Positions 7,606 to 62,745 of a DNA stretch of 64,000 bases are shown here, in pieces. The notes below the pieces were generated by a model. The model saw nothing but the letters and a program-made list of their open reading frames with translations. It ran no database searches and was not told the DNA's origin. The stretch comes from Schmidtea polychroa (taxonomy: Eukaryota): contig CM097885.1 in NCBI GenBank assembly GCA_044892525.1, positions 4,404,001 to 4,468,000 of the forward strand. The letters run 5' to 3'. Within the stretch, counting starts at the first letter, position 1, and each line of letters opens with the position of its first letter. A program made the position numbers and the translations under genes.

Positions 7606-9279
7606 ATGTATTCCTCCTTTCGGACTATTTCCAACAATTCCGTGCCAAGACCATTACATATATTTGTTATAGAGAAATTTTATATTGAAATAAAGAAATG
7701 GATAACTGCAAAGCAAAGTAAAAACCTTTCAATCGTGTTATGGAATAAAATATTGATAATAATTAGTATTTTATTCACTTAATTTGGTGTTAGTAGCCCT
7801 GGTCACGTGTATTCCAGCCCACACCACCGAAAATAACATTCTTCTAAAGAAATGCGAGAATAAATGAAGAAAAATTATATGGATGGAATTTCCCTCAAAC
7901 ATGCCACAATGAGTGAATGCCAGTCGCGTTCCCACTCGCTAAAATCAGTATTAATATTAAATTCAAAAGGTACGCTAACATTAATATAGGAAGATCTGTT
8001 GCGTAAAGCTAATTCATATAACCTAATGTCAAGCATATTCCATATCGATGGATGTTTGAATGGAAATCATTATCTGTTGCTGTCAAATAAATTTTTATAT
8101 ATTCGATTATTTGCTTTATAGAACAAATTTATTAAAAACATGACCTTGACCTTATACAATATAGAAAGGTCTGTTACGTAATGATAATTCATGCTGACTA
8201 TCATATAAGGATATTGGAGGGTAATTATATATAATGCAAGGACATTGTGGTAAATATGCTTTAGGTTCATTTGTACGAGCAACTCCAATAAATATATCTC
8301 GCTCGCGTTCATTTAATATGATTTACATTTTTATAATCACAATATATTTCCCCTCCAATAATTATTTGCTTGCCTATGCAATCATCAAGACTAAATTTGT
8401 GCAGCAATAAACAAAATCCGTGATTCCAGTTATCGCGACAAATTGAAGTAAATAAAGATTTCCTCCATTAGATAACCCCTTCTGAATTAATTGTTTTGGC
8501 TTTCCCTGCTTTAGAGCTGATAATAAGATAAATTCCGAGCACACGCCGAAGAAACTCTTTGTTTTTCCAATTATATAAATCAGGATGCTTCTCAAAATAC
8601 TTATTGACTTATTGTCGATTGTGCTCATCAGTAACATCGGAATCACTATTTGCCATAACAGTCGAAAATTCATTATAAATTAAGATATTCCGCAAAATTA
8701 TGAAATCGTATTAACAAACTATCATAAGCGATTAATGGTGTTAAATATCGATTTTTTAAATCATTATATAGATAAAAACATTAAAAACTATTATCAGCTT
8801 TATTGAGAGCCGAAAAATATTATAATTAATAAAATGAATAATATAAATTCAGAAATTTTACCCAGTCCAGAATCGCCATTTTGCAATTCAGCATTTCGAA
8901 TTACATATAGAAATCTATCTTAGCTAAATTAAATTCAATAAATATATCAATTAATATATAATAAACATACTAGTTCGTCAAAATATTTGACGTTAATCAG
9001 AAAATTGAATAAAAAATGCAAATAAACATTTATTGGACATTTAAAAATAAAATCTACATTAATAAAACAAATTTATATTATAATAAAATTAAATATTTAA
9101 ATGATAAATAATTATATTTCAACTTTTTGCATTTAAATAATATTTTAAATAATTTAAAAGGAGTTATGAAATTTTTTTTCTTTGAATCCTGAATTACTCA
9201 TTTATAGCCTCCATTTCCAAATGGAAACAATTATAGAAGTTTCAAGAATATAAAACAAGAATATAAAAAATATAAAACA

Positions 9280-9858: not shown

Positions 9859-10677
9859 TTAGTAATTTAATATACAAATAAATATACATGTTCGTATATT
9901 ATAGCAAAACCTTGTTTTTATTCTGTTAATTGTAGTTTTAATTTTTTTTGTATTAAAGTTATTATTGTTTAAAACGTGTTAATATTATTACTTATATTAA
10001 AAAAGAAGATGGGGAGGCGCCAAGAAAAAATTTTTTGGGAGGAGGCGCGTTAGCATAGAGGTTGGAAACCGCTGCTTTAAGATATATTTATATAACTTAA
10101 AACTTTCTAAGATGAAATGAGGATATTTAAATGTAAAAACAAAACCAACAAATATCAAAACAAATATTTGAACAAAATATGACCGCTTAACAAAATTGAA
10201 TTTGGATGTCTTTACTGGCAACCTCATGGACTCATCCAGTGACCATTGTCTTAAGAGATACTGCAACTGAGAAACAAATAATTAAAGCTGAATTGCTGAA
10301 TATGTTCTAATAACTGACTTTTTACGCATATCTCAAAGATGATTTATGGAAATTGTGCATGCTCTTTTTATTTTCAGTGAATGAATAAGTTCAAGGATTT
10401 CACAATGACCGCTGCGGTCGACTAGGTCCACATAACCAACTGTCTTGAACTAAAATTTTAAAACAATCTTAATGCTATGGGCAGAAAGACTCATGGTTTC
10501 TTTAAGCGGGATATAGTAAGTATTTCGCCACTAACTCGGTTACATCTAGTTAATTTCCTAACAAATCCCAAATTGTAATGCGGCCTTTCAATTTGACATT
10601 CACTATGGTTGACAATAGAATGTATAAATATATTTAATCATCATATCACTCTAACCATCCGAGTCGCTTTGTAAGCC

Positions 10678-14232: not shown

Positions 14233-15593
14233 TCATAATTTTTCAGTTCTGCACCTGAGCAGCAATTTGTCATTTTTGGCTGCTAATTTATTGATTGAGT
14301 TATCAAAAGCATAAATGCAAATTGGCTTATTTCTGTCATTTGACGGTTTCCCCCATCTGGTAGGATCAGGGCGATCTGAATATTTCATTGACCTGCTCAT
14401 ATAAATGCTGCCATTTGCTGGATCGATCATATCGATTGTCACCGATTGATTGAACGGCCAATCCAATTGCTCATCATTTGCCCCACGCATCACACAGAAA
14501 CCAACATCAACCCAATTACACCCAATCCTCACCGTCAAGCACAATTTGTAACCGATTGGCCCGGAATAAAATGCCTCGCTGTAAATCCATTCATCTTCCT
14601 TTTGTTGTGAAAATTTATCGATTTGCCATTCCAAAAATCCATAATTTATATATTTTTCACTTCCTAATTTTGTTTCAACCTGCCGAATTTCATTGGCGCA
14701 TTTCGCCATTTCAAGCTGCAACTGAATGTCAAATTCAAACATTTCAATAAATCAATAAATCACCTTTTCATTCTCCCGTTGCAGCCGCTGCTCGCATTTC
14801 TCTTTCATCTCATCAATTTGCTGTTGATATTTTGATTCAATCACCTCAATTTGTTGTCTGATCTGCTTTGCATCAATAACAAATCAATAACAAATCAAAT
14901 CAATATTCAAACTTGATTGATTGATCCAATATTTGTCTCCATCTCCATTCTCAATGAGCGATTCTCATTCTTCACTGCCACCATTTCCTCATTCAATTCT
15001 TCTATCTCTGCTCTGTTCTCTGCCTCTTTCCTTTCAATATTGCGCAATTTGGCATTCTCCTCTCTCATTTCCCGCATCTCATTGCACAAATTGCTGATCT
15101 GATCAATCAGTAATTTGCTATGGCCTTCATTGTTCTCATTGAGATGTATTTTCATTTTGTCCTTCTCTACATCATTCATTTCGCATCCAATCCTATTGAA
15201 TGGACATCTGATTTGCTGTTTGTTGCATATTCTCATGTGGCTCTCCATCATCTCTAATTCATCTCTGAATCGACAATTTTGCATTGGGCATTTCACTATC
15301 ACTTCTGAGATCCTTAAATTGATTGCCTGATCTTCAGAAACATCTTTATTGAAATTTATCATTTTCTTTCCGCAATGTTTTGCTGCTCCTGGGCAGAATT
15401 TATCCTTTCCATCCAAATAATGCTCAATGCAATCAGAACAAAAGCGACAACCGCAAGGAGCATTGCAAGCCTTTATCATTAAACATTTGCAAATTCTGCA
15501 TATCAATTCACTGCTGATTTCATTATCAAATTCAAATTTATTCCTCTTCATCATTTCCCATACGCTTGCAAACATTTTATCTGAAATTGGCAT
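14233..15593 (-). CDS. traf: TNF receptor-associated factor (RING, zf-TRAF, coiled coil, MATH); 3 coding exons
   Basis: RING CRIC...C.C.FC..C, zf-TRAF CPMQNC...H...C...CPF...GC, MATH motifs W.I..FS, YSEAFYSGPIGYKLCL, LDWPF, RWG. Two short phase-0 GT-AG introns (~14912-14866/63 and ~14763-14722/16) join the two listed ORFs through a middle exon. Exact start codon uncertain. Confidence 0.9.
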
Positions 15594-17149
15594 AATTAAT
15601 TGATTAAATGATAAATAATTATTATTGTGAAAATAAATCAATTAAATATTCCAATTTTATATTTCAAATTATGAAATTATCAAAATAATTCAACATTTTA
15701 CATATTTTATAAATCATAATTATTATATTAATTATTTCCTCTTACATTTTAAATTTCAAAGTTTTACAATTAATTTTTTTATGTAGATAAACAAAGATTT
15801 TATAAATATTGTTTTTTGGCTTTGAATGCGACATTAAAATTTAATAATTTTATTTTTCAGTGTTTTCTTATTTATTTAAGCCAGAATTCTGTCATTATGA
15901 ATATCTGGAATTTTTGTTATATAAAATTAAATAATTAAATGATAAAAAATTATAATTCAACTTTTTGCAGTTAAATAATATTTTATTATTATTATTTTTT
16001 ATTATTACTAATTTTTTTATTTTCATTGAATTAACTCATTTATAGCCTACATTTAATAAGCAACAAATATCAAAACAAATATTTGAACAAAATATGACCG
16101 CTTATCAAAATTGAATGTGGATGCCATCCAGTGACCATAGCCTTATGCTGCAACTGAGAAGGCAGTTTGTGAAAATCGTGCATGTTTTGGTTTTCTTCAG
16201 TACATGGAGAAGTTCAAGGGTTTCTCATTTGTCATTTACTACAAATATTCAATGACTTCTCTGCAATTCTACGTGCTGATCTAGCACCCGAGTGCTACAT
16301 AAATTCTTTTGAAAATCAAGCAAATGTAGTGAAAGTTGTCAATATTCTTTTCATGAGATTGGCTGACAATTGGTAATAAGTGAGTAAACTACTTCCAATC
16401 ATCAAATGCTCTGTATTTTGTGAAGTCCATTGAATAATCACTAGATCAAAGCAATTTTGCAAATCCTTTGAAACTCCGCACCGAAGCTGCTGACATTTCC
16501 CTAGCTAATCATTTGCCATTTGTATCAAAGAATTACCATTTATAATATGCTTTCCTTTCAAAATGAAATTATTTCTGAGCGCGCTGCTAAATTTAAATTG
16601 CAAATTGCTGTTGCTGCCAATTCCTCTGTGAGGCTTACGGATTTATCGGATACGTGGATAAGGACAACAGTTAATTGCTATAAGAACACATCCCTTAACC
16701 GTTATGAAAAAATGACATGTCTGTTTTACATTATAACCTTGTTAATTTTATTACATATAAATTTTCAATTTATATAATAAATCGCTGTTTTGATGGTCAC
16801 AATTTTTATGATCGCTATTATTAACGTAAATTTAGTATAGTAGGTTTTTTCGGGTGCCTACGTCACCCTTTTTTTCAAAATCCCAAGTCCTTCATGTGAA
16901 TCTTATAATAAATTCTTATAATAAATTATATCGATTATGATAATATTGACTGCTGATGATGTTGATATTATAATAATCATAGTAAGCATTGAGCGTTACA
17001 GAATCAATGAGTGAGTGAATGAACTGGGCATTTATAATATAGATTTGCATAGGTAAAGTATTAAATAATGATTTGATAAAGGGTATTTAAAAGATTGTTC
17101 GTGCAATAATTGCGCATTTAATACACAGTGTCACAGCCACATTGTTAGT

Positions 17150-35732: not shown

Positions 35733-37971
35733 ATGCACCAGCAACAATCACCAGGTTAGTGATAGCACTTATCTATGAAATTAAAGATAAATTTATTATT
35801 ATCATTAATATTTTTTGACCGATACTTGAATTGTGTTGTAAACTATTTCGTTTATAGATTCCCAAAATCCTCAACATCCTCAACATTTGCCATATCTGAG
35901 AAGTTATGAGAATTTGGGCTTACGAAACTGCTCTTACGACATGAATCTATGCAATGGAGTGAGATATCCTTTTACTTATCCTTCAGTTCAGGCGTCTGGT
36001 CAAGACTTTCCTGATACCAAAGTTCCACCAAATCTCATCAACAGTAAGCTTTAAATTAAGTTTACATTAATAAAACATAAAATAGTAGATTATCATCTTT
36101 TGAATTCAATGTGGCCGAATCATATAGACTCGATATCTCGAGCACAAATGCAATATCCGCAAATGCAATATTCACAGTGCAATTATAACCCCTTGCAGCC
36201 ATCTGTTCCAACCCATTATTCAATCCCATCAGAAAACCAAATGTTCATTGAACAAGTAAAAACAATGGTCAACGACCAAGCGCATTTACAAAACTGTCAG
36301 AAAATGAATTTCTCCGATTATTCCATGCTGGCTTCGGAATATTCGAAATCCGATGGTAAGAATTTGAGGGAAATTTGTGACTGATTGTCTCATTAGATTT
36401 TCTCTCCTCCTCAGTCAACTCGTCAAACCGGGCGAAAGAGTGCGTAATTTGCGGAATGGAAAACGGTGATACGTATCATCAAGATGGCAATGGGAATTTC
36501 CATTGTTTGAATTGCGTGAGAAAGAATCCATGCGTCAATCCGTCATTGGACTTGATTCCGTCGTATAAAAAGAATCAAATGAACAAAAATCTCGCTAGAA
36601 AACAAGTAAGCAGAAAGGGAAATTTGGGGATTTTTTTTTTTTTTTTTTAATTTTCTAATTATATTAAATAAATATTTTTTTTTAAAAGAATTTTTTTAAC
36701 AAATAATTCGTAACGATTCCCGACTGTAGACATGGGAGATTTTTTTCTATGAAAATCTCTTGCAAAATTTGGCGACTCACTGACGATGTGGGGCTAAATA
36801 AACATTGAGAGTTAGGAAACTGTGAATAGAATCTGATGGAATCTAGATTACTTGATGGATTTCTGGCAGTTTTACAGGCCGGACGATGCGGCTCGTTTGC
36901 TTTCACATAAAAAAAAATCCAGATACGGTTGTTTATTGCACAGGGAGAAAATATTTTCTATCGTGTTGGTTTTCTGGGCGCCATAATTGTTTGTTTATTG
37001 CAACAAGTATTATGGTCAACATCAACCGAACAATGCCACCGACTTTCTATCAATCACTTTATCCATATTTTGTATATATTATTATAATTTATTATCATTT
37101 CAACTTTTTCCATTTTCTTTCTCTCGCTCTCTCTTGCTTCCTCTCGCTCTCTCTCGCTCTTTCACTTTCGCTCTCCCTAGGGAATTTCCATAATTATTTT
37201 TATCCTAAATAGATTCACTTTATCAAATCCATATCGGTTACAGTTGAAAAAAAAACAAAATTTGTTATCAAGACTTACATCATAGCTTATCGAAATAATT
37301 GACAACATTGAGATAAACACTTTATCGAGTAGCCAATGCAAGCAATGATGTAAGCCGAATAGACCGTATGACATCATAGTTATTTTAAAGATATTATATT
37401 TATATTACCAACCGCTTATCTCTTAGCATTTCGTTATTTAGACTGCAAAACGAACAGGACTCCAGTGCTCGAACTGTAAAACAGAAAACACGACCCTTTG
37501 GAGAAGAAACAGCGAAGGACAGCCAGTATGCAACGCATGCGGTCTCTATTACCGGCTTCATAAAGTACTGGCTGAGATATTTATTAACTTCTTTATTCGT
37601 CAATTCTAGACACATCGGCCTCCAACAATGAGGAAAGAGATATTACAGAGTAGGAAGCGAAAAACGAAAAAGAAACAAACGATGTGCATGAAGTATATGG
37701 GTAAGAATCATTGGAATGGAACGGAATGTATAAGGTTGATTAATGTGATATATTTCTAGATCAAGAATTCCCAATCAAATCAGAAACCCAACTCATGTCA
37801 TCTCCATTCACTAATGGCCATTGCATACAACAGACAACAGACAAATACGATTCCACATTTCGACATCACGGATTCGAGCTGACTCAGCCGCCATCCAATA
37901 TCAATGATATGGTCCAACATCCGATCACAAACATCAGTCATCATGGACCATTTGACTATATACCCCAATAA
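35733..37971 (+). CDS. gata4/5/6: GATA4/5/6-class transcription factor, 7 exons, 369 aa
   Basis: Exons 35733-35754, 35858-36043, 36089-36355, 36397-36605, 37442-37564, 37610-37700, 37760-37971, all GT-AG and phase-compatible (1110 nt). C-finger [39 protein letters not shown], basic tail [16 protein letters not shown], degenerate N-finger CVIC-x17-CLNC. Confidence 0.92.
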
Positions 37972-38384: not shown

Positions 38385-40962
<2,578 letters not shown>

Positions 40963-43580
40963 ATTAAAAAATTATATCAATTTCAATTTAATTGCTTTCT
41001 AATCAGGAAATTCATGAATAAATTTAAAAATTCAATTTATATTTTTATGTAGAACTATTTTAGGGCCTTTAAACTAAGGTCATATGTAAAGTTTGTGTGG
41101 CTGTGGGCAATGTTCCACTATGAAGAGGCGGTCTCTGGGTGGAATCCCAAAAGCTTGAGCAAGCCCAATCATTGCACCATTATTTTTATACTGACAAAAA
41201 ATTAGTGATTTAACAATTGTAGCTGATGTTATTTTTTATTTCATTTCGGTTTTTATTTTAGAACATTGACCCATATGACCCATCATCAAATCTATCGGAA
41301 AATGAAATAATTTCCAATAATTTTTCATTTTCTCATGGACACTGAAAATGTTTATCCAAATTTACGATAAAAATATATTTTTCTTTTTCTTCAAAAATCG
41401 AGGCATACTTTTCTTCTTGCTGCAAGGTACTAACAACATCAAAGCAACCATGCCACTGGAAGGGTCTCATATCTGACGTAACATGTCATCAAAAGATATT
41501 TTTAATTAATTTGGTATTTTTTTCATATTAGTCAGAGATTTTTCTATTATTTTTTTAATCGTTTTTTTAGTCATTTCTAATTTAATTTACTTTTTTCTTT
41601 GGGCATCACCATGATGGATTTTGCTTAATTATGTACTTTTTATTTATTCATTTTAATTTAGTTGGAGTTTTGCGGTTTTCTGGCCGTTTCTAAAATTTTT
41701 TAAATTAAATTAAATTTAAATTTTATTTTTTGACATTGACTTGATAAATTCCAAATGTTTTTTGGATGTTAATTTCTCCCTTTGTTATGTTCATGCTAAA
41801 CTTAGCGCCTTAATGATAATTTTACATTAATTTTTTATGTTTATTATTCTTTTGTCTGTTTAGTGGTAAATAAAGTATTGAGTTTTATGTTTTGATTTTT
41901 ATTTAACTTAGGGTTTTCTTTATTTGATTTATTACTGATACATTTGAACAAATAAATTTTAGCCTTAGTTTTTGCCAAACAATAGTCATATTTTTATAGT
42001 TATCGCTGTTTGAATGAGAAATAATTTACCTAAACTGGATGTAAGTATGGCATTAATAAGTTTACCTTATGTAAAGGTAAAGTATAGGAGATTAACATGA
42101 TGAATGCCGGTAGATATGGTAACCATACATAATCATAGATAACCTTTCTATTTTAAAACTGGAACCGTTCAACATGTAGTTAAGGCCTACATGTTCTAAA
42201 ATTCATTCAGAAAGAAATTACGGTATAAACCTTTATTTTTTGAAAATAAAAAGAACAAAGGATAATTTTTTGGTAGTAACTATAAATTATGTAATATAAG
42301 TAAATGATCAAATAAGCTTTTGCTGCAAAATATGTATTATATCAAAAAAGAAATAGTAATTTAATACATATTCAAATATCCTATTTTTTGGTTTTAAAAA
42401 TAACCACCGTTTTTCAACCATGCAAAATTCCTCCCAAAAAATTTATTCATAATTGACCGATAAGGTTTGACTGAAAGACAAAATATTTGAAAGGCAGCAG
42501 AAAATATAATTTTTTGAAAAATTGATCGCTTAAAAAAAAGAAAATTAAAAATTTATTTACTCCATTTTCATGTAGAATTTTATATTTGTTGTCTAAATGT
42601 TTCAATTAAATTAATATTTTTCAAATATAAAATTATAACTTATTTGTTTTATTATTCTTTCATTTTAAAAATAAAGTTAAATGAATTCTTATTATGACTT
42701 TGAATACTGAGAAAAGTACATTTTATATGATTTATTTATGTATTAAACCTTTTTATTTTTATTAGGAATGAACTTTGTTATATTTATTTTAAATATTTCA
42801 GTCCAAAGAGATTCATAAAGTAAGTAACTATGTTATTATATTTTTATTATGAATTAAACCAAAATACGTAATTCGCTTATTTAAAAAAATGGGAATTCCA
42901 AGAATAATGAATAAAGATTGTAGCTACACAATAAAATTAGTTCTTTTTTCTTATTTGTTGCAGTTAATTGAATTTAATTCATTTTTTCATGTAATAACAT
43001 TTTTCAAATCGGAGTCGTATTTGAAATAAAATGGAGTCGGAATCCGCACCACTGTTCATAAAACCTGTTATTGAAATATTGATATCCTTGAAATTATCAT
43101 AGTTTAATAAATAATTCCTATTTGACATAAATTTACTCATACTGATTTACTCATTCAACTAAATACCAATAACATTTAATAAATTCATAAAAATCTTATT
43201 TAAATAATTTCCTTTAATATTGATATTTAACCATATAAATTGCCATAATTACTCATACTAATATCTGAACTATTATAAATAACCTCACATAAAACAATTT
43301 AATTCTAGTGATCAAAGTGTCATACAGCACTATTTACTTAGAACATTGATACATTTTCAATTCAATCCATCGATATATTCTATAAATTGCCACTTGTTAG
43401 AGATAAAGTCAGTATTTAACCGAACATTTCCATTAAAACTTTGATACTGAACTCACAAGTAAAGTGTAAACCTAGAATAAATCCATATATACAATTCATA
43501 CATACATTCACAAAATTCTGCGTAAATTGTTGACTATTATTATATTAAATTACAAATTTTAGTCCACATTATATTTCTAA

Positions 43581-46059
43581 GGCTCCTAATTAAATGCAAA
43601 TTAAATAATCCCATTTTGCACACTAAAAAATTAACATTTGCTAACTATTTTTGCAAACTAAAAAATAATTTTTGCACACTATAAAATTGATTTTTGCTAA
43701 CTATTTTTTGAAAACTAAAAAAATGATTTTTGCACACTATAAAATCGATATTTGCTAACTATGTTCTGCAAACTAAAAAATAAATATTTGCACACTATTT
43801 TCAAAAATATTTATACATTATAAAATAAAAATTTCAGATATATTTCAATGAATAAAAAAGCATAGAGATTACAATTTATTGTGAATGCTTAAATACAACA
43901 ATTTATAGACATTTAAAAAATGGTTTAACAAAATGTTTTGTATGATGGCTGCATTTTATTTGCACTAGATATAATATATTTTTAGTTCTACTGCAACAGC
44001 AATGGTTTTCTTGCTTTTGCAGGGCGACCTCTCTTTCTTTTGGTTCCAATTGGAACATTTTTCGCTTCGGTTGGAGGGGCTGCAAGCTTTAGTCGAATAG
44101 CTAATCCAACAATGTGTTTGCAAAGCATTTTTTTAAAAAAAGAAGGGCAGTTACAGTCTCCGTTAATCCAGTCATTTTGATCTTTTGGTAAAATAGTAGT
44201 CCATGAAAGAAATGCATTAATTTTAAACTCATCAAACGTTTCCCAGTTGTCAATTCCATCGTAGGTTTCTGTCAAATCTTTTGCAGCAATTTTGTAAACA
44301 ACACCACTCTCTGTTGATTCTGGAGAAATGGTTTTCTTCAACTTTGCCCAATGGTATGAGCTAGTCCAAAGTTCCAAGTCAATTTCTGGTTCGGTTTTGA
44401 TGACTTTAATTCCAGATTCGTAATTGTTGGACCACCTTTCAATCCAATCAACCAATCCAACAGTAAATCTTGATAGTGAGACTCGCTCTCTCATAGAATA
44501 TTCATCTTTCATGACTCGGTTGTATGCCTCAAGGGCATTGTTTGTGCTAGGTGTTAGTTTTTTGGCACCTTCAAACCAATTTTTATTTGATTTCAGCCAT
44601 TCAGCTGTGAAGTATTCGACAAACTCCTTGTTTGCCTTCCACTTTTTCAAGAATAAAATTGATGCTTTTTCAAAAACTTCTCTGGATTGACTGAGTTGCA
44701 AAGAATCAATGTCAGACAAAATTTCCTGTCTTGCATCTTTTGGAATCAAAGAATCCACTTTTTTCTGAACATTTTTTTTCATATGAGCCCAGCACATAAT
44801 CACCAATACGTCTTTGCCAAACACTGCTATGAAAGAGTTTTGGATGCTTTTTGATGCATCAGAAATTAATGTGCTTGGATTGAAGGGAGCATTGAAGATT
44901 TTAGGAACTTCATTCTTCAATGCAGTAAACAAAAATTTGAAGTCCTCAGTTTTTTCATCGGTGCATACTCCAATACCAAAACAATGAAACTGGCGATTGC
45001 GATCTGTTGTACCAATAACAAGAACAGGGAAGCCTTGCCATACAAGTTTGTATGTAGCATCTGCATGAATGTTGTCAGCGTTTAAAGCCATTTTCAACAT
45101 TGTTTTAGATGAAATGAAGTACCGGAAATATCCAGTGTCCTCATATTTAATTTCATATGCAACAACAAATGCTTTGTTATCTGCTTCTGGAACAGCTGAA
45201 TGAATTTGCAACCACTGATTTAATTCTCCAAGGCTAATGATGTTGGCACCATATTTAGACTTTCTCAAGGATGCCAGATGATTATTCAGTTGTGTTTGAC
45301 TCGGAAGGGGTAATTTTTCGTTAGACAAATGTTCTAACATTGCTTTTGGTTTCAATTTTAAAGCAAACAATTTGTCAATTTCAGCTTTGACGGTATCTGT
45401 CATTGTTGTTCTTGTTTTGATGTTGTCACAATCATGTGCATGTCCTGATCTGTATAGAACAAAATCACAAGTGCTGGACTCGTACCACAAGTAAACTGAG
45501 GCTGAACATTGTTCCCCACGAAATGTAACACGATTACAACGGAAAAACCTCTTTTTCCCCTCTTCAGTTTTATTTGTCCGAAAACAAGACCACACTTTTT
45601 CGTTTTTTACAAAATCCTCAGCTTCATTTGAACTTGCAAATGCATTTGCTCTTTTCCAGTCTTTGCAAATTTTTTTCCTTCGAGTTTCAAGTTTTAAAAC
45701 GTGTTCTTCATCTTCATTTCCTGAAGAACAGTATTCTGGAAAAAAGTCAAACTCTGAATTTTTTTTAAATTCCACCATTGCTATAACGACAAAGAAGTAT
45801 TTATTATGAATAAAACAAACATAGTTAGAAAATAATTTATTTATAGTTAGCATTACTATTTATAGTTAGCAATTATTTATTATAGTTAGCAATTATTATT
45901 TATAGTTAGCATTTATTATTTATAGTTAGCATTTATTATTTATAGTTAGCATTTATTATTTATAGTTAGCATTTATTATTTATAGTTAGAATTTATTATT
46001 TATAGTTAGCATTTATAGTGTGCAAATACATTAAAATAGTGTGCATTTAAATTGTAGCG
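43581..46059 (-). mobile_element. Mutator-like element (MULE), apparently complete
   Basis: 9-bp TSD tatttctaa at 43572-43580 and 46060-46068. Imperfect TIRs (ggctcctaattaaatgca / revcomp cgctacaatttaaatgca). Mirrored subterminal repeats tgctaactat/tgcacact on the left and atagttagca on the right. Confidence 0.9.
43988..45778 (-). CDS. MULE transposase with SWIM finger and C-terminal AT-hook-like motif
   Basis: Uninterrupted ORF (ATG at 45778) with HADATYKL, LISDAS, CWAHM, TNNALEAYN (DDE core), CNCPSFFKKMLCKH (SWIM) and KRKRGRPAK. Confidence 0.92.
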   Translation of the reverse strand: MVEFKKNSEFDFFPEYCSSGNEDEEHVLKLETRRKKICKDWKRANAFASSNEAEDFVKNEKVWSCFRTNKTEEGKKRFFRCNRVTFRGEQCSASVYLWYESSTCDFVLYRSGHAHDCDNIKTRTTMTDTVKAEIDKLFALKLKPKAMLEHLSNEKLPLPSQTQLNNHLASLRKSKYGANIISLGELNQWLQIHSAVPEADNKAFVVAYEIKYEDTGYFRYFISSKTMLKMALNADNIHADATYKLVWQGFPVLVIGTTDRNRQFHCFGIGVCTDEKTEDFKFLFTALKNEVPKIFNAPFNPSTLISDASKSIQNSFIAVFGKDVLVIMCWAHMKKNVQKKVDSLIPKDARQEILSDIDSLQLSQSREVFEKASILFLKKWKANKEFVEYFTAEWLKSNKNWFEGAKKLTPSTNNALEAYNRVMKDEYSMRERVSLSRFTVGLVDWIERWSNNYESGIKVIKTEPEIDLELWTSSYHWAKLKKTISPESTESGVVYKIAAKDLTETYDGIDNWETFDEFKINAFLSWTTILPKDQNDWINGDCNCPSFFKKMLCKHIVGLAIRLKLAAPPTEAKNVPIGTKRKRGRPAKARKPLLLQ

Positions 46060-50235: not shown

Positions 50236-51772
50236 TAAGCTAAATTAGCCTTGATTTTCTTTAAGGATGAAATTATTTAAGGCAACCCCAAATGTTGGGT
50301 AATGCAACTGAAATTCAGTGAAATATACTAAATTTGGCCATTAAATTAATTTTAGATATCCTGAGAATGAAATCATTACATTTTAATCAAACACCTGTCC
50401 AAGTTTGATGAGAGTGAGAGAATAATGTAGATCAACCAGTTAATTTAATCGGCTATGAAATTTAAGTGACCTGAGAACATTTCCTTCAATTAGCGTTGTT
50501 TCGACCAGTCAGAGGGGGAATGACATCTACCTCTGACTGGCAGTTTTTGTTTTGATTTTTGTCGCGTCTGTGTGCAGAATTATTGTCAAATTGAGGTGCG
50601 CACACAGATGCGAGGAATTGAAAATTGTTTTTTTGGAAGGTTCGAGTACCATTTTGTTTTAAATGGAGTTTTTTAAAATGAAAAATGTGGTTAAAGTTAA
50701 TATTCATCCAGTGGCTCTATCCTCAATAACTGATGCATTTGAAAGAAGGTCTGAATTACACATGAATCTGAAAAATACGCATTGATTTAATGAAAGAAGA
50801 ATTAAGAAATTAAAGAGGACAGGTTTATATGAAACCTGATCTATCTCAGGTGATAAATGTAAGTAGTGATGTTCTTGAAATGATAACAGTTGTGTTGGAT
50901 TATGTTTCAAAAGTCGTTAATAAAGAAATTTCTGAAGCTTCTGTTTTAAAGATTTGTGTTTACTCGAATCAAGCGTTATGACATTGCCGACATATGTAAA
51001 TTTTAATATGGTCGATGAGCTAATTGTTTGTGAATCGGCACTAACGTTCTAGTCAAGCACTGAGCAAATCGAATAATCCTTATCCGAGCCTAGTGTGAAC
51101 GCGTGATCTGTTCGACTAGTGCTGGTAAAGTAGAAATTTTCACATCGATGAAAGCCTATCGTCTAAATTACGTTGATTGGTTCACTGTCGCTTGATAATG
51201 GACAGTAATGATTTGGACGTAATTTCTAGATTCGATTTTTCTATGATGTGCTTTACTTGAAGTTTTCAACGATAATATCTGCTCACGATAATTGCATCTA
51301 TTCTATTCTTACTGTTAATGATATAGATTATTGTTTGCTATTTATCATTTTTATTTTTATCCATTATTCACAATGATGGCATATCATTTCAACACTTATC
51401 ACATATATTGCCTAGTTTTACAAATATTATGAAAATTATTGAATTAAAAAAAATTCAATTGTGAAACCAAAAGATTAATATAATTTATTCGATTTATTAA
51501 TATTGAATCGATTTCTAAATTATTATTTCATAAAGCAATAATAATTAATTAATCGATTCCTAAATTAATATTACATTATGAAATACATTGATTAGAGAAA
51601 AATGATATTAGTGTAAATATTGATATCGTTAAAAATAGTTGTGACTTAAAATTTAATTTCAGTGAGAGAGGTACCCGTAGCAGACTTAACAAAACCGGCT
51701 ATAGTAGATGGATTGGGCACCGCTAGCACAGTCCCCCCCCCCCGGTCGGAAAAATTAAAAAAAATTTTTTTT

Positions 51773-52432
51773 TCAAGGTCAAATTTAAAAAAAAGACATG
51801 ACTCACCAAGGTTGAAAAACAAAGACCATGACTCATCAAATTTCTCAAGGTCATTTAAAAAGACCATGACTCATCCTATGACTCAGCAAGGACATTTTCA
51901 AGGCCCTATAACTCATAATATGACTCTTCAAGGGTATTTAAACAAAGACCATGACTCATCAAGGTAATTTTCAAGGTCTCATGACTCATACTATGACTCA
52001 CCAAAGTCATTTTCAAGGTCATATGGCTCACCGGATGACTCATTAAAATTTTCAAGGTCATTTAAACAAAGGCAATGACTCACCCAAGGTCATTTTCAAG
52101 GTCATATGACTCATCCAAGGTCATTCTCAAGGTCATACGACTCATCCAACGTCATTCTCAAGGTCATATGACTCACCCAAGGACATTCTCAAGGTCATAT
52201 GACTCACCCAAGGTCACTCTCAAGGTCATATGACTCATCCAAGGTCACTCTCAAGGTCATATGACTCATCCAAGGTCATTCTCAAGGACATATGACTCAT
52301 ACTATGGCGCATCAAGGACAAAATTTTTTTTCAAGGTCAGCTATGTCACCCTATGACTTATCAAGGACATTTCAAGGTCGCATGCCTCACCCAAGGTCAT
52401 ATGAGTCATCGCGATGAGTCATCAAGGTCATA
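51773..52432. repeat. Subterminal tandem array, 31-bp unit ATGACTCAYCCAAGGTCAYTCTCAAGGTCAT
   Basis: 31-bp periodicity at 52106, 52137, 52168, 52199, 52230, 52261 and 52292, with degenerate units on either side. Confidence 0.92.
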
Positions 52433-52504
52433 TTATTATTTTAAAAAATATTATTATTATTATTATTATTATTTTTAAAAAATATTATTTTATTATTAAT
52501 TTTT

Positions 52505-54509
52505 TCAAATTAATCCTGCGAGAGACATTGCATCTCCTACATGCCGCTCCGACATATCTACCAGTAAAATGACAATGATCTCACAGGATTAATAATAGCT
52601 TTTTTATACAAGTAACAAATAGTGCTAGATCGAAAGGCACGCTCCTGAGCAAAAGACAAAGTAGACATGCCTTTACGACCTTCAAGATCATAATATGGCA
52701 GGACAATTGTGACAGCAATTTCCTCCACTTTCCTCAAAAAATCCAAAATACAATTAGGTCCAAAAAAATAATAATAAAATTTAGTATTTGTATAATTATT
52801 AATTAATAAAAGACCTGCTGATATGGGTAAATGTATTTGGTGATATGTTTCGTGTTCAGGTAAAACCGATTCAAAATCGGCATAAATTACGAAGGGAGGT
52901 GTAACGGTTTTTGCGTAATCTGTGAATAATAAATCCTTATTTTTAGGAAGTGTATACAAGGTTATGCCAGTCTGATTTTTACAGCATAGAGCAACATGCT
53001 GATCGAAAGCATTCTTATATCTAAAGCCATTTAAACAATGTGGGCACCAGTTACACCTTATTTGAACATTAACATTTTCATTTAAATGGCAATTCATTAA
53101 TTTGTCCAAGTCTGTCACGGCCGTATAGTGATATTTATCTTTATTACTCAAAAGTAATAAATAAATCGGCCTACCGTCTATAACCTTGGAGCGATGTACA
53201 ATATTAAGATGAGGGTGGTGAGCTACATAATCCTCAGAAATATCACAATCAGAACTGGCTGGATTATAAGACAGAACGTTTATGCTTAAGTTTAAATCTG
53301 GATTTTTCCTTTCGAATTTGGGAATGTTACACAGCCTCATCGAGCAATCTGTGTCTTCATCATAATTTAAAAGATGTAAAAATTCTATATATTTGGCGGC
53401 TCTTTGGTGATTACGACCTATTTCTTCTCTTTTTTAAAAGTGCAAGAATGCTATACAAGAAACACTTATGGTCATTTTTTTTTAACATTAATTATTGCGT
53501 GTTTTAATTTTAATGCAGATGGGGTTTTTATATAACTATGTCCGGATAATCTACTAACGGGTGCGTATTTCGTTAAAATAAAATCTATCTCTAAAATATT
53601 CATTACTCGCCACCCGCTTCCTAAATAAGTGAATTGCTCAATCTTTTCATTTAATTTGCTCACCCCCTCGTTTATAAAGTTTGCTGTAAAAACTTGCGCA
53701 TTGTTTGAAAAATAATTATCCCGGATCTTTTTCAAATTTAATTAAAATTGTAAATTGAATTTTTACATTGCCCATCTTTTCTATTTCCTCTATTAACCTT
53801 TCTTCAATTTTAGATGTTAGGGCTATTTTTACTAAGTTTTGATTTCTTATATCAAATTTTAAAGTTTTTCGCGATCCATTCAAATCGGATTCTACCATAG
53901 GTTCAAACAAAGAGCCGCCTATTTGACATATGTTGAAAGACGTTGAAGCTACACATTCATCATTGATGACTATCACTTCTTGTTGTGTAGAGGGTGCTTG
54001 TTGTGTAAAGGCTGCTTGTTGTGTGAACGATGTTGAAGCTACACATTCATCTTTGCTGATGACTATCACTTCAGGTCGCGATAATTTATTAGGAATATAA
54101 TTTTTAATTAAACCAGCAGGTCTTTTAATAGAATCTTTTTTAATAATATTTTTAATAGTATCTTTTTTAATAATATTTTTAATAGAATCTTTATAATCTG
54201 TTTTAATTGAATCTGTTATAATATTTTTTTTAATAGCATCTTTTTTAATAATATTTTTTTGTAACTTTTTTTGTAAATTTTTGTTATTTATTTTTTTAAA
54301 TAAATCATTTTTTGGAATCGAAAATTGCCCTAAGTGACTACGATGTTTATTAAAAAATGCCTTATATTTTATTTTTTCGCTAGTCACGCATTTGGGACAT
54401 ATAAAAAAGTTGATTGAATTAAACGTTTTTTTATAATATTTTTTCATCGTACGATGGCATTGATCGTTATGGCCAATTGACGATTGGCAGTAATTTGGGT
54501 ATAGTCTAC
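52505..54509 (-). pseudogene. Polinton protein-primed DNA polymerase B, N-terminal half only (frameshifted; polymerase domain deleted)
   Basis: GSGW, SYIKTP...AIINVK/NDHKCFLYSILA, FERKNP, CPHCLNGF...HVALC, FVIYADFES (ExoI) and DHCHFTGRYVGAACRRCN (EndoVII-like insert). Ends abruptly at AT-rich sequence next to the 31-bp array. Confidence 0.9.
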
Positions 54510-54705
54510 CTGTTAAATAATAAAATTAAAGTTTTATTCTTTTTCTATATAGAAAACTAATTGTTACATCTATAAGGATTTATCATCATTTGTTATTTAA
54601 TTCAAATGAACTATATAACAAATGATGATAAATCCTTATAGAAAATAGGTTAATATATTCGAGAGAATATGTTAAATATTAGAGAGACTATAGTAGATGT
54701 GTCAG

Positions 54706-55824
<1,119 letters not shown>

Positions 55825-55843
55825 CATTATTATTATTATTATA

Positions 55844-55927
<84 letters not shown>

Positions 55928-56484
55928 TTAACTATTGTAGATGCACATTGCAAACTACAAGGATTTATAACTATAATTTCGTAATCACTTTTTTAAATAT
56001 TTTCATAATAATTTCATTATTTTTTACAGAAACGTAGTATTTACTTCATATAATCATAATATTTTCATCATAAATTCATAATTTTCGTCATAATTTCATC
56101 ATTTTCATCATAATTTTGATCATAAATCATTTTCATCATTTTCATCATAATTTTGGTCATATAATCATTTTCTTCATAAATCATTTTCATCATAAATCAT
56201 TTTCATCATAATTTTGGTCATAAATCATTTTCATCATAAATTCATAATTTTCATAATTTTCTTCATAAATCATTTTCATCATAATTTTGGTGATATAATC
56301 ATTTTCTTCATAAATCATTTTCATTTTTCTTCATAAATTTTCGTCATTAAATCATTTTCTTCATAAGTTTCATTATATCATAATAATTTTTATCAAATTA
56401 TTTAAAAATGTTTTTATCAAAATATTTAAAAAAAAGTGATTACGAAATTTTAAAGAAATATATATATAAAAAAATAAATCTTAC

Positions 56485-56879
56485 ATTCAGATTCCATGTC
56501 GGAATCATCCTCAGAGAGGACATTACCAATTTCATCATTAATTTCATCATCTTCAGAGAGGACATTATTAATTTCATTATCTATGTCGACATTGAAAACT
56601 GGGGCATTCATAATAATTGAATCGCTAATTGAAACATTTTCTAAAATGAAAAATTAATTTAATAAACTGAAAAATAATAAAATTTTTTTTTCTTTGAAAA
56701 CTGGGGCATAATTAGGGGCATCAGTTTGCCCAATAAATACGACATCATCGTCGCTATTTGAATCATTTTCTGAAATGAAAAAATTAATTTAATAAAAATT
56801 AAAATAATAAATTTACTGAAGATCTTATCCACATTTAGAATCGATTCGTCTTCGGTTACTTGGTACCAGTCGAACACAT
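56485..56879 (-). CDS. Putative small acidic 5' exons of the Polinton pPolB transcript
   Basis: Exons 56879-56817, 56769-~56692 (donor apparently mutated) and 56640-56485, with tttag/ttcag acceptors and gtaa donors. The phase-1 donor at 56484 fits the acceptor at 54510, in frame with ORF 54447. Confidence 0.5.
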
Positions 56880-57390
56880 CTAAAAGAATAAAATAAAATA
56901 TAATAAAATAAATTACCCGTCGTTTCTTAAAATATTATTGTTATTTTGCATAGTAGATGGATAGTAGAAAATTGAAGTTGAATTTTTAAAATTTTAAAAT
57001 AATTGTGACAAATTTTAGATTTGTCAATGTTTATAAAGAGAATGAATATTTTCCTGTCCCAACCAATGAGAATATAGACACACACACATATATACACTGA
57101 ATATTTTACTCTCTCAACCAATCACACGCATGCATGTATGTAATGTAAATTACTCCGAAATTACATGTGACTGCCTTTGTTAGTCATGCCTTTGTTAACT
57201 TGCACTGTACATGCTTCAGGCATAGGTAGTCTTTATGTTACAAATAATAATATTTATTTTAATAATAATAAAATTAATTAAAAATAATAATATTTTTCAC
57301 AATAATAATAATATTAATAATAATAATATTATTAATAATAATAATAATAATATTAATAATAATAATAATAATATTAATAATAATAATAAT

Positions 57391-57421
<31 letters not shown>

Positions 57422-57540
57422 ATAATAATAATATTAATAATAATAATAATATTAATAATAATAATAATAATATTAATCACAACAACAAAGGAAAGGATAC
57501 ATTTATTAAACATCAAATTTTATTAAACATTCATTTTTCT

Positions 57541-57940
57541 TTAAACATCAAATTTTTTGTACAATAACCAAGCTAAACAATGTTGACCACATGTTTGGGT
57601 CAAGGGATTTTGAAACATAGTTTTATTTTACACAATAGGTTTTCCCATTGTTTGTAGTTTTGATATCAACAAAGCCGGGTAATAAAAACCCATAGGATCG
57701 AACACGAATATATTACCAGGTTTCATATCCAATGTTCTCCACCAATATGAGACGATTGAGTATTGACGATTATTGCTTGATTATTGCTCAAATATGGAAT
57801 TTTATCAAGAAGAAAAACTCCAACAAATTCATTTCCCAATATCTGTTTTCCAATTTTATTGACCTGAACAGAACTACTTAAATAAATCCAGAGTATAAAA
57901 AACAACTTACTCCATGACAACTTTTTGTGTTTCAATATAC
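57541..57940 (-). pseudogene. Adenain-like (Ulp1/C5) maturation cysteine protease
   Basis: FVGVF...IIVNTQSSHIGGEHW / IFVFDPMG...FQNPLTQTCGQHCLAWL contains the H-D-Q-C catalytic residues. One frameshift and one stop. Confidence 0.88.
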
Positions 57941-57942
57941 AT

Positions 57943-59156
57943 TTATACCAACACAGTTCTATTTGCAGTAATTTGAACTTCATTTTCAAATACTCCATAT
58001 ATTATAACATGTACTGGTTCAGTAATAGCTTTTGCAAACTTTATATCCAGTCGTAAATTTCCATTTTGAGGTAATTGACTCTGATTTAAATCAAAATCAG
58101 GGGCTAAAACAAATGTAAAAAATGGGTATTTGCTTTTAAAATCTTCTAGAGTTATTCCGCAATTTAAATTTTTATCTAAATAACCCAGATTTCTAACAAT
58201 ACTCTGCATATATGTCGCACAGTAATTGTCATTCTCGAAATCTTGAATATATGTTTCTCTATAATCAGTATTTTTCGAAAAAGTCAATAATGTAACACCA
58301 AAGTTTTTGAAAATTGAGCTGGACGCAGTATATGATCCATTATATTGTGCTTCACTTTGAAATGTTATCAGAATAAAATTAGGCATTCTTCTGTCACCAA
58401 ATATTTGTTCTTTATAGAATGATGAAGCACCTTTAGCAATAGCAAATTGTACAATTTCCTTTGTTTTTAATGGATAAATTGCATGTTTTGAATTAAGACC
58501 CAATTGATGACCTGCTAATACTGAGGGGTCTACTCGAACTCTTCTCACCAATAATTTTGCATCAACTAATTGACATATTGGTGTAGTAGTTGCACTAGTA
58601 AGAGATAATGCAGAATCAGACCTTTTCAGTCTAATATGTACATTAACTCCCGGTAGTAAATATTTCGGTTGCTCCATAAAATCAAGTTGTAATGATGAGC
58701 ACATGGTGAAAACCTTTGAGCCTTTAACCCACTTTTTTCTTTCATCATCTGCTGCTGCATAACCCATGGGAGTAAGACATGTATTTTTAGTATCGGAATT
58801 GTAATTTAAAATAGTTTCTATTAATGCCTTGTGAATGAATGTATTATTTCCACCCTCAATCTTGATATTATTAAATCCCAACAGTGCATCTTTAAAAAAA
58901 GTATGAAACAGGAAATTGTTCGGTATTACATCTGCATCCAAAACTTTTCTATCTTTATCTACAACCTTAATCTGAACAGTCAATAAAGTATCGTTCAAAT
59001 CTAAATATTCGGTTTGTGAACCATTAATATAAAACTCGATATCATTTCTACTATCGGTAATTGAATTCATAGGAAAAACTTCCTCAAATGCCCCAAATTC
59101 TATTACAGCCTGGGGCGACGGTCTATCAAATATACATAATTCAGTTTTACCACAAA

Positions 59157-59160
<4 letters not shown>
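57943..59160 (-). CDS. Polinton major capsid protein (double jelly-roll, PY/hexon-like)
   Basis: Intact 405-aa ORF. N-terminus KTELCIFDRPSPQAVIE...P...DIEFYING...YLDLNDTLL and C-terminus GNLRLDIKF...IIYG.FEN.V.I match Polinton MCP patterns. Lies between the integrase and protease genes. Confidence 0.88.
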
Positions 59161-60104
<944 letters not shown>

Positions 60105-60166
60105 TACAACAAGAAGATTTAAAATTAAATTTAATGTCGGGCAATGAAGGATTAGCACCCATTGTT

Positions 60167-60673
60167 TATGACTGTGTAACTCCACCTAATAATGATAATG
60201 CCAGAGGTATCAAATCCACCTTGTTGTTTATATATAATTTTTCTCATTTGTTGACGATTTTTATTATTTACTAAAGATAACAAAGGTTTCCTATGTTTGC
60301 TCAATAGATGCTTTTTTGATTTACTGATTTTAATCTTGCCTTTGACTACTTTAAGTATAATATTGAGTAAATCATCGACAACAAAATTTGGGAATGATTG
60401 CAATATATTCATTCTTTTCATACTCGGGGCCTTTAACAATGCATTAAAAAATGGAAAACTGCGATGATTTTTAACTACTTTTTTACTGGTTTTACGGGTT
60501 TTACGTTTAGGTTTAGGATTTTTCGAAATAAGATTCATTGCAGAAAAATTTTCAGTTACAAGTTTTTTAGATGGTGTATAACTAGTTGTTGGTGGAACTT
60601 TTGGAACTTTAATACTCTTTCTAATACTTTTTCTTAATTTCCTAATATTTTTCACCCTTGCTTTTAGAAACAT
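60167..60673 (-). CDS. Basic Polinton core/membrane-active-like protein ending QQGGF(LIPLALSLLGGVTQS) after a frameshift
   Basis: Lys/Arg-rich, with the pattern LL...R..IL...N.....V.G.I.I......L.K.RK.L..L......R..I..Q.GGF that I recognise from the Polinton gene usually adjacent to the ATPase. The hydrophobic tail continues in a shifted frame. Confidence 0.6.
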
Positions 60674-60679
60674 TATTAT

Positions 60680-61317
60680 TCATAGAGGTTTTGAACTTTG
60701 TTTATAAACCATGGCACCTTTTGGGTTGAAAATATCTGTTTTTACTCGTAAATCATCGGGACATTGTTGTGTGAAATCAAGAAATATATATCCATGAGGT
60801 ATTTTTGTAGCATCTTGAAATGCACTGATAAGAAAATTACGATTGTTGGGTATGCTTGACCTGCAAGAAAATCAATCACTGTTGCATCTCTAGGATTCTT
60901 GAAAATAACTAAATATTGTACATTTAAATTACGTGTTCGATGTGCCCCACCTTGATGAAATAGATTTTGTGTTATGAAAATAACTGTTACACCGACATGT
61001 CTGCTGATCTTTGTAAATAAATTATTAAAATCTTTTTCTTTATTAGCTTCTTGATACAAATCATCGATAATAATGACATCACCTTTCTTTAATCGGCTGG
61101 ACCAGTTTTTATCGAATCCCTTTACTATTTTCATGTTTTTTAATTTACAGAAACTTGATGGAGTTAATCCATGTTCTTCATCAGCACCCCTATGCCAATA
61201 AATCCTGTTGAATTTTGATTTGAATAAATTTGATTTTAGTAATTTACAAACAAATAATGTTTTTCCACTACCACTCGGACCAACGATTTGGTATACTGCA
61301 TCATTTCTTAATTCCAT
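60680..61317 (-). CDS. Genome-packaging ATPase (A32/FtsK-like), frameshift near C-terminus
   Basis: Walker A GPSGSGKT, Walker B IIIDD, SRH, ITQNLF and FKNPRD. The shifted frame continues AFQDATKIPHGYIFLDF...DDLRVKTDIF to a stop at 60680. Confidence 0.92.
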
Positions 61318-61325
61318 TTCAAAAA

Positions 61326-61390
61326 TTTTATATATGTGTATTTGTTTATATTCGATGATTTAATGAACTCGTACTCAATTTGTATATAAA
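61326..61390. promoter_or_regulatory. Divergent TATA-like boxes between the ATPase and TBP-like genes
   Basis: TATATAAAA on the minus strand (~61326-61334) upstream of the ATPase ATG, and TATATAAA on the plus strand (61383-61390) upstream of the TBP-like gene. The AT-rich background weakens this. Confidence 0.3.
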
Positions 61391-61404
61391 GACTAATTTT
61401 CATA

Positions 61405-61841
61405 AATGATTTAATAAAGTTAGCAAATATAAATTATCGAGGAAATTTTGATGTATCGAATATGAGGTTTCCACCAGGGAAACCCCAGCAAATTATCGAT
61501 AGAAGCGGGAAATATCCGATAATATTTTTCAAGACTGGTAAATGCAGAATCATGGGATGTAAGAAACCTTTGGATATTAATAAATTACAATATCGAATAA
61601 ATAATATTTTACCGTTACTATGGATATGGGACATAGTATCAATCTATATAACATGTCGAAAAAATGTGATTGTATGTTTGAACCGGAATTGTTTCCGGCA
61701 CTAAGACTATTAAAATATAACCCTATATGTGTCAACGTGTTTGCTAGTGGAAAGGTTGTCATGTTGGGGTTGAGAAATTTGGAGTATAGAGAATTTGTTG
61801 ACAATGTTCGAAATGAGATAATTTCATTGGTCGATTTCTAA
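61405..61841 (+). pseudogene. TATA-box-binding protein (TBP)-like gene carried by the Polinton, one frameshift at ~61608
   Basis: Repeat 1 LANINYRGNFDV...IIFFKTGKCRIMGCK and repeat 2 RINNI/TVTMDMGHSINL...MFEPELFPALRLLKYNPICVNVFASGKVVMLG match the TBP consensus LQNIV...IFSSGKMVCTGAK and YEPELFPGL...IFVSGKVVLTG. Start codon unclear. Confidence 0.85.
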
Positions 61842-62745
61842 TTGGTTAATTTCTAATTGGTTATTGATTGATTTAAACAAACGGATTTTTGTTTAGGATT
61901 CATTTATTCAACAACATGTACAACATGATACCCTTTTAAAAAAAAATTTTCCGACCGGGGGGGGGGGTACTGTGCTAGCGGTGTCCTGTGCCAGCGGTGC
62001 CCAATCCATCTACTGGCTATGATATAAAAAAGCTAAATAATTTATTGATTTGGATTTTTTTTGGTTTTCATGTTTGTTTTTTGTATTATTATTTTTCTAA
62101 TCAAGCTATTATCAACTGCTCACAAGAGAGATCGAGTTAACAATTTATTGATCCTTGTGTAAATGTAGGCTTAGCTGGGTTGTTAATTGCTACGTTTAAT
62201 GCTAAATTTAGCTCACTGTTTTTCTTTTCAAATTTTGGGATGTTACATAACTTCATGGGACAATCACTAATTGGGTCAAAATTTATATAGTCTAAAAGTA
62301 GATGGTTAGGGGCCCGCTAAATCCCACCCCCCGAAATTTTTTTTAAAAATTATGTAGGTCAACTCAAAATTTTATACATTTTTATAATTTTTTAAGATTT
62401 TCAATGGTTTTCAACTCTTTTTCTCGAAAATATTATAATTTTTTTACAGTTGAATTTATAACGCATTTTTTAATTTTTAATCATTTAATTATAATAATTT
62501 ATCAGCTCGGCATATATCTGTCAAATCCAGTAAATCCTAGTTTTTGATAATATCATACCATTCTCCAATATAATATCTAAATAGAAATATTATCAACTTT
62601 AAATATTAATAATAAATTTACCATTTTGTTATTTTCAATATTTATATTTACCTGAAACATTTGTATACTAACTTTTCGGCTTTCTAAAATTAAATATTTA
62701 TAGATACAAAATTAAAAATAAATAAATTTTCATCACAATAATTTT

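Follow-up and report, generated by a model that had tools for sequence, protein, structure and literature searches.

An array of AP-1-type and NR5-type words near one end of a deleted Maverick copy in Schmidtea polychroa

Just inside one end of a mobile element, within the 64,000 nucleotides of Schmidtea polychroa DNA analysed here (the window), 660 bp consist largely of short words that match the binding sites of two unrelated classes of host transcription factor. The question that this locus raises is what such an array does: whether it drives the genes of the element, serves its packaging or replication, regulates host genes nearby, or is a repeat that resembles factor sites by chance. To our knowledge, what switches on Mavericks in animals is not known, and the array points to two host factors as candidates and offers a 31-bp probe. 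Since RNAi, wounding and ATAC-seq are routine in the genus, the question of Maverick activation is directly testable.

Words, spacing and phase of the array

An earlier note on this DNA had described the stretch as a dense array of AP-1 and nuclear-receptor sites, and the counts bore this out: 17 TGA(C/G)TCA words (15 TGACTCA and 2 TGAGTCA) and 18 CAAGGTCA words were found in its 660 bp, whereas 1000 dinucleotide shuffles gave means of 0.19 and 0.10, respectively, and a maximum of 2 each. All 18 CAAGGTCA words have the form YCAAGGTCA and all 18 lie on the + strand, and the remaining 63 kb of the window holds 3 AP-1 words and 1 reverse-strand CAAGGTCA. When near matches are counted as well (Table 1), 15 of the 33 receptor-like and 6 of the 23 AP-1-like words are imperfect; every one of the 33 receptor-like words starts with C, and a pyrimidine precedes 30 of them. 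Five copies of a palindrome, GTCATATGAC, link the two word types.

High word counts alone are little proof, because any tandem repeat multiplies its own words. Among the matches listed, of the viral loci selected for having three AP-1 words, 52 of 120 hold at least five in 660 bp; of those selected for three CAAGGTCA words, 121 of 122 turn out to be period-3 repeats. The fact demanding explanation is instead a single unit that combines two perfect words of different factor classes; a random 31-mer would hold both with a chance of about 1e-6, for a pair picked after the fact.

The 31-bp unit proposed earlier holds as a clean period in the tandem core, about a third of the array, but the remainder is built of 42-, 73- and 83-bp modules with the same words, and the spacers between words range from 1 to 17 bp, near matches included. 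Measurement of the core confirmed the 6-bp gap claimed between the two AGGTCA half-sites of each unit. A third word, TTTAAACAAAG, is AT-rich and, but for a single letter, matches the TATAAAC box that precedes the capsid-side genes of the element. The array had also been said to occupy the left end only, which is correct for this copy, where the inner 660 bp of the right end contains 1 near-AP-1 word and 0 receptor words, but the statement reaches no further than this copy, whose right end may itself be deleted.

The period that best fits the word ends across the array is 10.3-10.35 bp. To the left of the core, the phase is seen both for all 23 words (R=0.74, order-permutation p=0.0026) and for the perfect words (R=0.71, n=12, jitter p=0.007); with n=5 each, the receptor words by themselves and the part to the right of the core give p of about 0.08. 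The helical phasing claimed earlier thus persists, at about 10.3 bp, outside the 31-mer core. These phase statistics are not independent, because modules of the array are duplicated, and a 10-bp proto-repeat would yield an identical phase of about 10.3 bp.

The conservation of motif and spacer positions was compared in the seven core units. Counted per cell, 4 of 161 motif positions vary versus 6 of 56 spacer positions (p=0.02, with cells that are not independent); counted per column, the figures are 4 of 23 versus 3 of 8 (p=0.33, from few columns in one copy). Of the 319 substitution rows obtained from the family contigs, 40 were listed, and none of these falls in the array. Motif letters of the core differ at 2.5%, and this copy as a whole differs from deep family contigs at 2-6%; since the two rates are alike, this copy looks to be decaying neutrally, with no sign of selection.

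Two further features of the stretch were discounted. Its single-strand folding score (z=-3.2, 20 shuffles) is as expected of repeated, near-palindromic words and was not counted as a sign of structure, and a 101-aa ORF spanning the array we take to be incidental to the repetition.

The Maverick copy and its family

The element that carries the array is 10.3 kb long (51703-62014); the array starts 70 bp in from its left end and covers the interval from 70 to 730 bp from that terminus. The element has inverted ends, of which the first 47 bases are identical between left and right except for one 16-bp gap and one 1-bp gap, and is flanked by a 6-bp duplication, GGCTAT. Terminal inverted repeats starting with AGT are typical of Maverick/Polinton elements, and a 6-bp target-site duplication is a hallmark of them. 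The further traits of the group that are present here are a double-jelly-roll capsid protein, a packaging ATPase and a remnant of protein-primed PolB (pPolB).

Table 1. The array, its element and the flanking duplication, in window coordinates
Feature	Position	Strand	Remarks
Target-site duplication, left copy	51697..51702	+	GGCTAT; identical six letters on both sides
Left terminal inverted repeat	51703..51776	+	begins AGTAGATGG; reverse CCAAT and C run inside
AP-1-type/NR5-type array	51773..52432	+	56 words (23 AP-1-like, 33 receptor-like, near matches counted), 425 of 660 bases
Third, AT-rich word TTTAAACAAAG	51937..51947, again 52061	+	variants at 51817 and 51854
31-bp tandem core	52075..52300	+	7.3 units, 93% matches; one AP-1 and two receptor words per unit; steps 9, 12, 10 bp
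AT-rich tract, internal deletion junction between array and polymerase remnant	52433..52502	.	pPolB match ends at 52503
Protein-primed PolB remnant	52503..54447	-	several frame-broken pieces; up to residue 588 of a 1242-aa relative
Candidate cysteine-protease fragment	57723..58001	-	92 aa; no Pfam match
Double-jelly-roll major capsid protein	57943..59160	-	405-aa open frame; 159 homologues; model pLDDT 87.5
Probable retroviral-type integrase	59157..60185	-	split by in-frame ATT microsatellite; Pfam rve
Basic 173-aa ORF	60152..60673	-	no Pfam match; Atlas scores all <0.9
A32-like packaging ATPase	60742..61317	-	Pfam Pox_A32 25.6 bits, cut-off 22.8
TBP-like gene, two frames	61390..61841	+	head to head with ATPase; Pfam TBP E 1.8e-9 and 0.011
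Right terminal inverted repeat	61935..62014	-	array-free on inner side in this copy; aligns with left end
Target-site duplication, right copy	62015..62020	+	GGCTAT

Comparison with relatives indicated how much of the element has been lost. The pPolB remnant is 43-52% identical to nine relatives, eight of which are 934-1256 aa long and four of which carry PF03175, but residues 589-1242 of the relative P0122, and with them the polymerase domain, are absent from the element. One family contig has 168 different letters ahead of 52509, at the deletion junction. Because pPolB halts at residue 588 of 1242 beside the array, and because one contig has other sequence at the junction, this is an internally deleted copy; the DNA that the array once faced is therefore missing, and its native target gene is not visible. 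Of the features expected in an autonomous Maverick, neither a complete pPolB nor a length of 15-25 kb was found, and this copy is a deleted, non-autonomous Maverick. It resembles animal Maverick/Polinton (adintovirus-like) elements in its terminal repeats, 6-bp duplication, probable integrase, A32-like ATPase, double-jelly-roll capsid and a pPolB with an endonuclease-VII-like domain, and differs from them in its missing polymerase domain and in its length, 10.3 kb versus the 15-25 kb given as typical in the available part of PMC6431247.

Among the proteins, the capsid model matched iridovirus, PBCV-1, mavirus and Sputnik capsids by Foldseek (best E 9e-17), and the integrase matched rve with E 8.5e-6 at 26.4 bits, versus a curated cut-off of 32.6. 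A motif in the fragment listed before the capsid gene in Table 1 suggests that it may be a cysteine protease. ATAAAC boxes lie 32-46 bp upstream of four of the six element frames checked (the ATPase, the 173-aa ORF, the integrase and the capsid protein), and among these six none was found before pPolB or the protease piece. The element also holds many other simple repeats. An in-frame microsatellite, (AAT)56 at 59547-59715, keeps the integrase frame open, and the interior from 54690 to 56430 contains 86-bp and 121-bp repeats, (ATT)n runs and a ATCATTTTC-rich array.

The status of the array within the family was assessed by comparing contigs of four sequencing runs (from at most four studies; 4 of the 24 listed) with 51300-54600. 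The mean summed depth of the array relative to the pPolB part was 0.76, 2.9, 2.8 and 2.2 in the four runs, and the outer flank bin had depths of 3.6, 41.8, 0 and 0; summed contig depth is not copy number and is inflated by the internal repetition of the array. Contig joints skip or repeat array units, and loose ends show these words at different spacings. The contigs of all four runs contain the array, which is clearly a trait of the whole family and present in multiple copies, and the possibility raised earlier that other family members lack it proved not to be so. Mavericks are described as expanded in the related planarian genus Dugesia in the accessible text of 10.64898/2025.12.11.693146. 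Farther afield, a DNA-pattern search for relatives of the array listed 12 viral and at least 80 metagenome loci; those listed were all single matches, and none of them was like the element by blastn/tblastn. Searches of viral contigs for relatives of the element returned 0 of 16 and 0 of 26 candidates by capsid, and 1 of 56 by pPolB, a distant one (28%) in which the array was absent from the 13.3 kb examined.

Candidate host factors and a baculovirus parallel

TGA(C/G)TCA is the AP-1 site. The identities proposed earlier for both motifs held up. The receptor word is the exact sequence bound by a flatworm NR5A protein: in the EMSA of Schistosoma FTZ-F1 (SmFTZ-F1; PMC8673669 S4 Table, 37 probe rows, tallied by eye), all 8 probes with CAAGGTCA were bound, compared to 3 of 29 without it and 0 of 2 with CAAGGCCA. 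Neither CAAGGCCA nor AAAGGTCA occurs anywhere in the window, and the receptor variant CAAGGACA, which occurs five times in the array, is not among the published probes. ERR, named earlier as a candidate, is unlikely, as it is reported missing in S. mediterranea, where FTZ-F1 and HR39 are present, in the available part of PMC8363021. An NR5A2 of Dugesia japonica is listed in the accessible text of PMC12312329, and this together with the same part of PMC8363021 indicates that planarians have both NR5A and NR5B. FTZ-F1 or HR39 are the candidate receptors for the array. In mouse, Nr5a2 and Esrrb both bind TCAAGGTCA, according to the sections available of 10.1101/2022.05.17.492379.

Other factor classes were considered and rejected: an NR4A reading (AAAGGTCA) and a CRE reading (TGACGTCA) each found 0 sites, and for an antioxidant-response reading the array holds just 1 site. 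Early in regeneration, a Maverick of Hydra falls in one cluster with Jun, Fos and CREB, as stated in the accessible portion of PMC13465017, which is weak support for an enhancer function.

Viral loci were scanned with triple-word patterns, and one of the 242 loci among the matches listed, L272, has both words clustered, with 17 AP-1 and 18 CAAGGTCA words in 660 bp. By Pfam gene content (pif2, F, pp31, fgf, dUTPase, ribonucleotide reductase and iap) L272 is an alphabaculovirus; two further loci, L338 and L341, are the same virus. Its array (9975-10640) consists of 18.2 units of 29 bp, carries the same two words in the same polarity as the planarian array, and ends, at its last word, 166 bp before the fgf start and upstream of a TATA box. 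Across its 11 units of 29 bp (longer units excluded), 0 of 15 motif columns vary versus 4 of 14 spacer columns (p=0.04). Of three relatives with fgf, two (L342 and L343) carry hr-type repeats at the corresponding place, palindromic and 66 bp long, in which AP-1-like and CAAGGTCG words occur; the third, L344, has no hr-type repeats at fgf. The hr palindrome of L342 and L343 has 0 matches in L272, whose array resembles an hr of which just the host-factor words are left.

The L272 and planarian arrays share stretches of at most 12-13 bp, their spacings differ (13/16 bp versus 9/12/10 bp), and a 10.4 phase is absent from the L272 array (R=0.17). The comparison suggests independent, convergent origins; it is suggestive, no more, because L272 is a lone example that came up in a search for these very words. 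As the spacing differs between the two arrays, the idea of a fixed composite AP-1/receptor element was rejected. A scan for the order receptor-AP-1-receptor gave six loci, with L338 the sole array among them. A short receptor-AP-1-receptor-AP-1-receptor composite was noted in a metagenome locus (L071:624-680), just past a CCAAT box on an unrelated contig. Tandem TCAAGGTCA also occurs beside TGACTCA in several families of gene-poor contigs (L018, L022, L024, L076, L083 and L087; L025, L027, L028, L042, L048, L049, L055, L063 and others), which suggests that these words are common in invertebrate repeats; CAAGGTCA repeats are likewise common in animal-like repeat contigs.

What the array may do

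We favour, at slightly better than an even chance, the explanation that the array is a cis-acting enhancer belonging to the Maverick itself and read by host factors, working like a baculovirus hr or the left end of adenovirus. It would have arisen by tandem amplification of two host sites, one for bZIP/AP-1 and one for an NR5 monomer (FTZ-F1 or HR39), at about one per helical turn, and host bZIP and NR5 factors would load cooperatively on one helical face and open the chromatin at the end of the element. Most likely the array would boost host-dependent early transcription, that is, of pPolB and of any genes that the lost stretch once held, and it may also aid the initiation of replication at the adjacent terminus, as in baculovirus hrs and the adenovirus left end. 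ATAAAC boxes stand before four of the element's frames but not before pPolB, which would therefore need a host-driven signal. From the words and their arrangement we infer that factors bind the array in the living animal and that it enhances transcription, as well as which genes it would act on and any response to wounding. Because the adjoining genes are deleted or broken, the array of this copy is probably an orphan.

A more specific version of this enhancer reading is tentative, and we would put it well short of even: the phased array of AP-1 and FTZ-F1/HR39 sites would act as a host-triggered switch for early genes, thrown in a particular cell type under stress or wounding, after which the mini-TBP would drive the capsid genes from a private TATAAAC box, the baculovirus having converged on the same arrangement at an hr position. 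If true, DNA viruses of invertebrates would have AP-1 plus NR5 as an activation code that arises repeatedly, and many copies would scatter dense AP-1/NR5 clusters through the genome of a regenerating animal. The baculovirus parallel suggests a regulatory solution shared among unrelated invertebrate DNA viruses.

Known systems resemble the array in part. Landais et al. 2006 reportedly described clusters of bZIP sites in hrs. Like hrs, which belong to an invertebrate dsDNA virus, the array consists of non-coding tandem units with AP-1-type words, and the L272 array stands where L342 and L343 have their hr-type repeats. In contrast with hrs, the planarian units contain no imperfect palindrome of about 30 bp (the longest palindromes found in the array are AT tracts and one 25-bp stretch), and this copy has one array, at one end. 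Hrs have been implicated both as origins and as enhancers, as set out in the available text of PMC3702617. The adenovirus left end is similar in being confined to one end just inside the terminal repeat and in its redundant, helically spaced repeats, which bind a host nuclear receptor (accessible part of PMC5033970), and adenoviruses are a related lineage that shares pPolB, capsid and ATPase (available sections of PMC6431247). It differs in that no TTTG-N8-CG occurs in 51703-52500 of the planarian element, whose words are host consensus sites and number 56 compared to 7 A-repeats, and which is integrated, with a probable integrase and a target-site duplication. By analogy, the array may work like an hr or an adenovirus enhancer/packaging region while being a member of neither. 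Transposon-borne NR5A sites, in mouse SINE B1 (Nr5a2/Esrrb) and in the repeat at S. mansoni meg-8.3, are likewise cases of TCAAGGTCA spread by a mobile element; going by the portions of those reports available, they are single sites with effects on host genes demonstrated, whereas the planarian array is 18 perfect sites in tandem with AP-1, known from sequence. No description of a subterminal AP-1/NR5 array in Mavericks was found in the literature searched, including the accessible parts of PMC6431247 and PMC8502044, with subscription journals and Repbase outside its scope. An AP-1/NR5 array in a Maverick is seemingly a new form of a known type of viral control region; as tandem enhancers made from host sites are already known in viruses, the surprise is moderate.

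That the array is chiefly a packaging or replication signal, read by proteins of the element (the ATPase, the basic 173-aa protein, the N-terminus of pPolB or the mini-TBP) with host-factor binding incidental or auxiliary, seems to us unlikely. It would account for why the array sits at just one end of this copy, between 70 and 730 bp from the terminus, and why its words recur once per helical turn, in an element that has capsid and packaging ATPase genes; the packaging domain of adenovirus also lies at one end, has to be within 600 bp of the terminal repeat, needs 21-bp spacing, overlaps the E1A enhancer and binds COUP-TF without needing it, as given in the part of PMC5033970 available. The array is deeper than pPolB in three of four runs, as expected if gene-less derivatives retain it, but these depths are swollen by internal repetition. 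The TTTG-N8-CG A-repeat occurs 0 times on both strands of 51703-52500, and viral proteins would give no reason for an exact match to two unrelated host consensus words, or for the same pair upstream of a baculovirus gene. We think it a shade less probable again that the array is a neutral minisatellite, grown from a proto-repeat of about 10 bp (GTCA/CTCA) and carried along with the end of the element, whose likeness to factor sites is due to chance. Both words do share a TCA/TGA core and are joined by the GTCATATGAC palindromes, unit number and order differ between copies at contig joints, the motif-versus-spacer test by column gave p=0.33, and other simple repeats abound in the element. Chance growth sits poorly, however, with two perfect words for different factor classes, in the form preferred by flatworms, that are kept across modules of 31, 42 and 73 bp, with spacers anywhere from 1 to 17 bp long, and that recur as the same pair, with invariant words, in a regulatory position of a baculovirus.

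The least probable of the explanations, and a very improbable one, is that this copy now serves the host, by co-option, as an enhancer of GATA456b or of other neighbours. The earlier note had pointed to a GATA gene about 14 kb away, and the gene is real: its exon is 96% identical to S. polychroa GATA456b, and its coding exons lie on the + strand at 35857-37968, 13.8 kb from the array. Precedents for co-option exist in Nr5a2 sites of SINE B1 (available part of 10.1101/2022.05.17.492379) and in a repeat-borne FTZ-F1 site upstream of S. mansoni meg-8.3. The proposed effect on GATA456b is nevertheless unsupported, as the array is one decayed copy of a very high-copy family, for which some gene within 14-16 kb is expected anyway, lies downstream of GATA456b and past the ORF of a MULE transposase, and has core motif letters that diverge at a rate (2.5%) inside the copy-wide range of 2-6%, so that nothing points to selection.

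Several other features were noted elsewhere in the window. The last GATA456b exon includes a TGACTCA with an antioxidant-response-type extension (37878-37886), and just downstream of the gene lies a 438-bp inverted repeat (38828-39265 and 40533-40970) with 98% complementarity. The MULE transposase ORF, with a SWIM finger, is at 43988-45853, and a TRAF gene with RING, zinc finger and MATH domains is at 14233-15641. A second Maverick-type terminus, of another family, was observed 283 bp past the element (62297-62350; AGTAGATGG, a C run and an A/T tract); the window holds no second end to pair with it, and no array follows it. Fragments of pPolB from other Maverick remnants lie on the + strand at 212-653, 2837-3260, 5854-5985 and 7346-7650.
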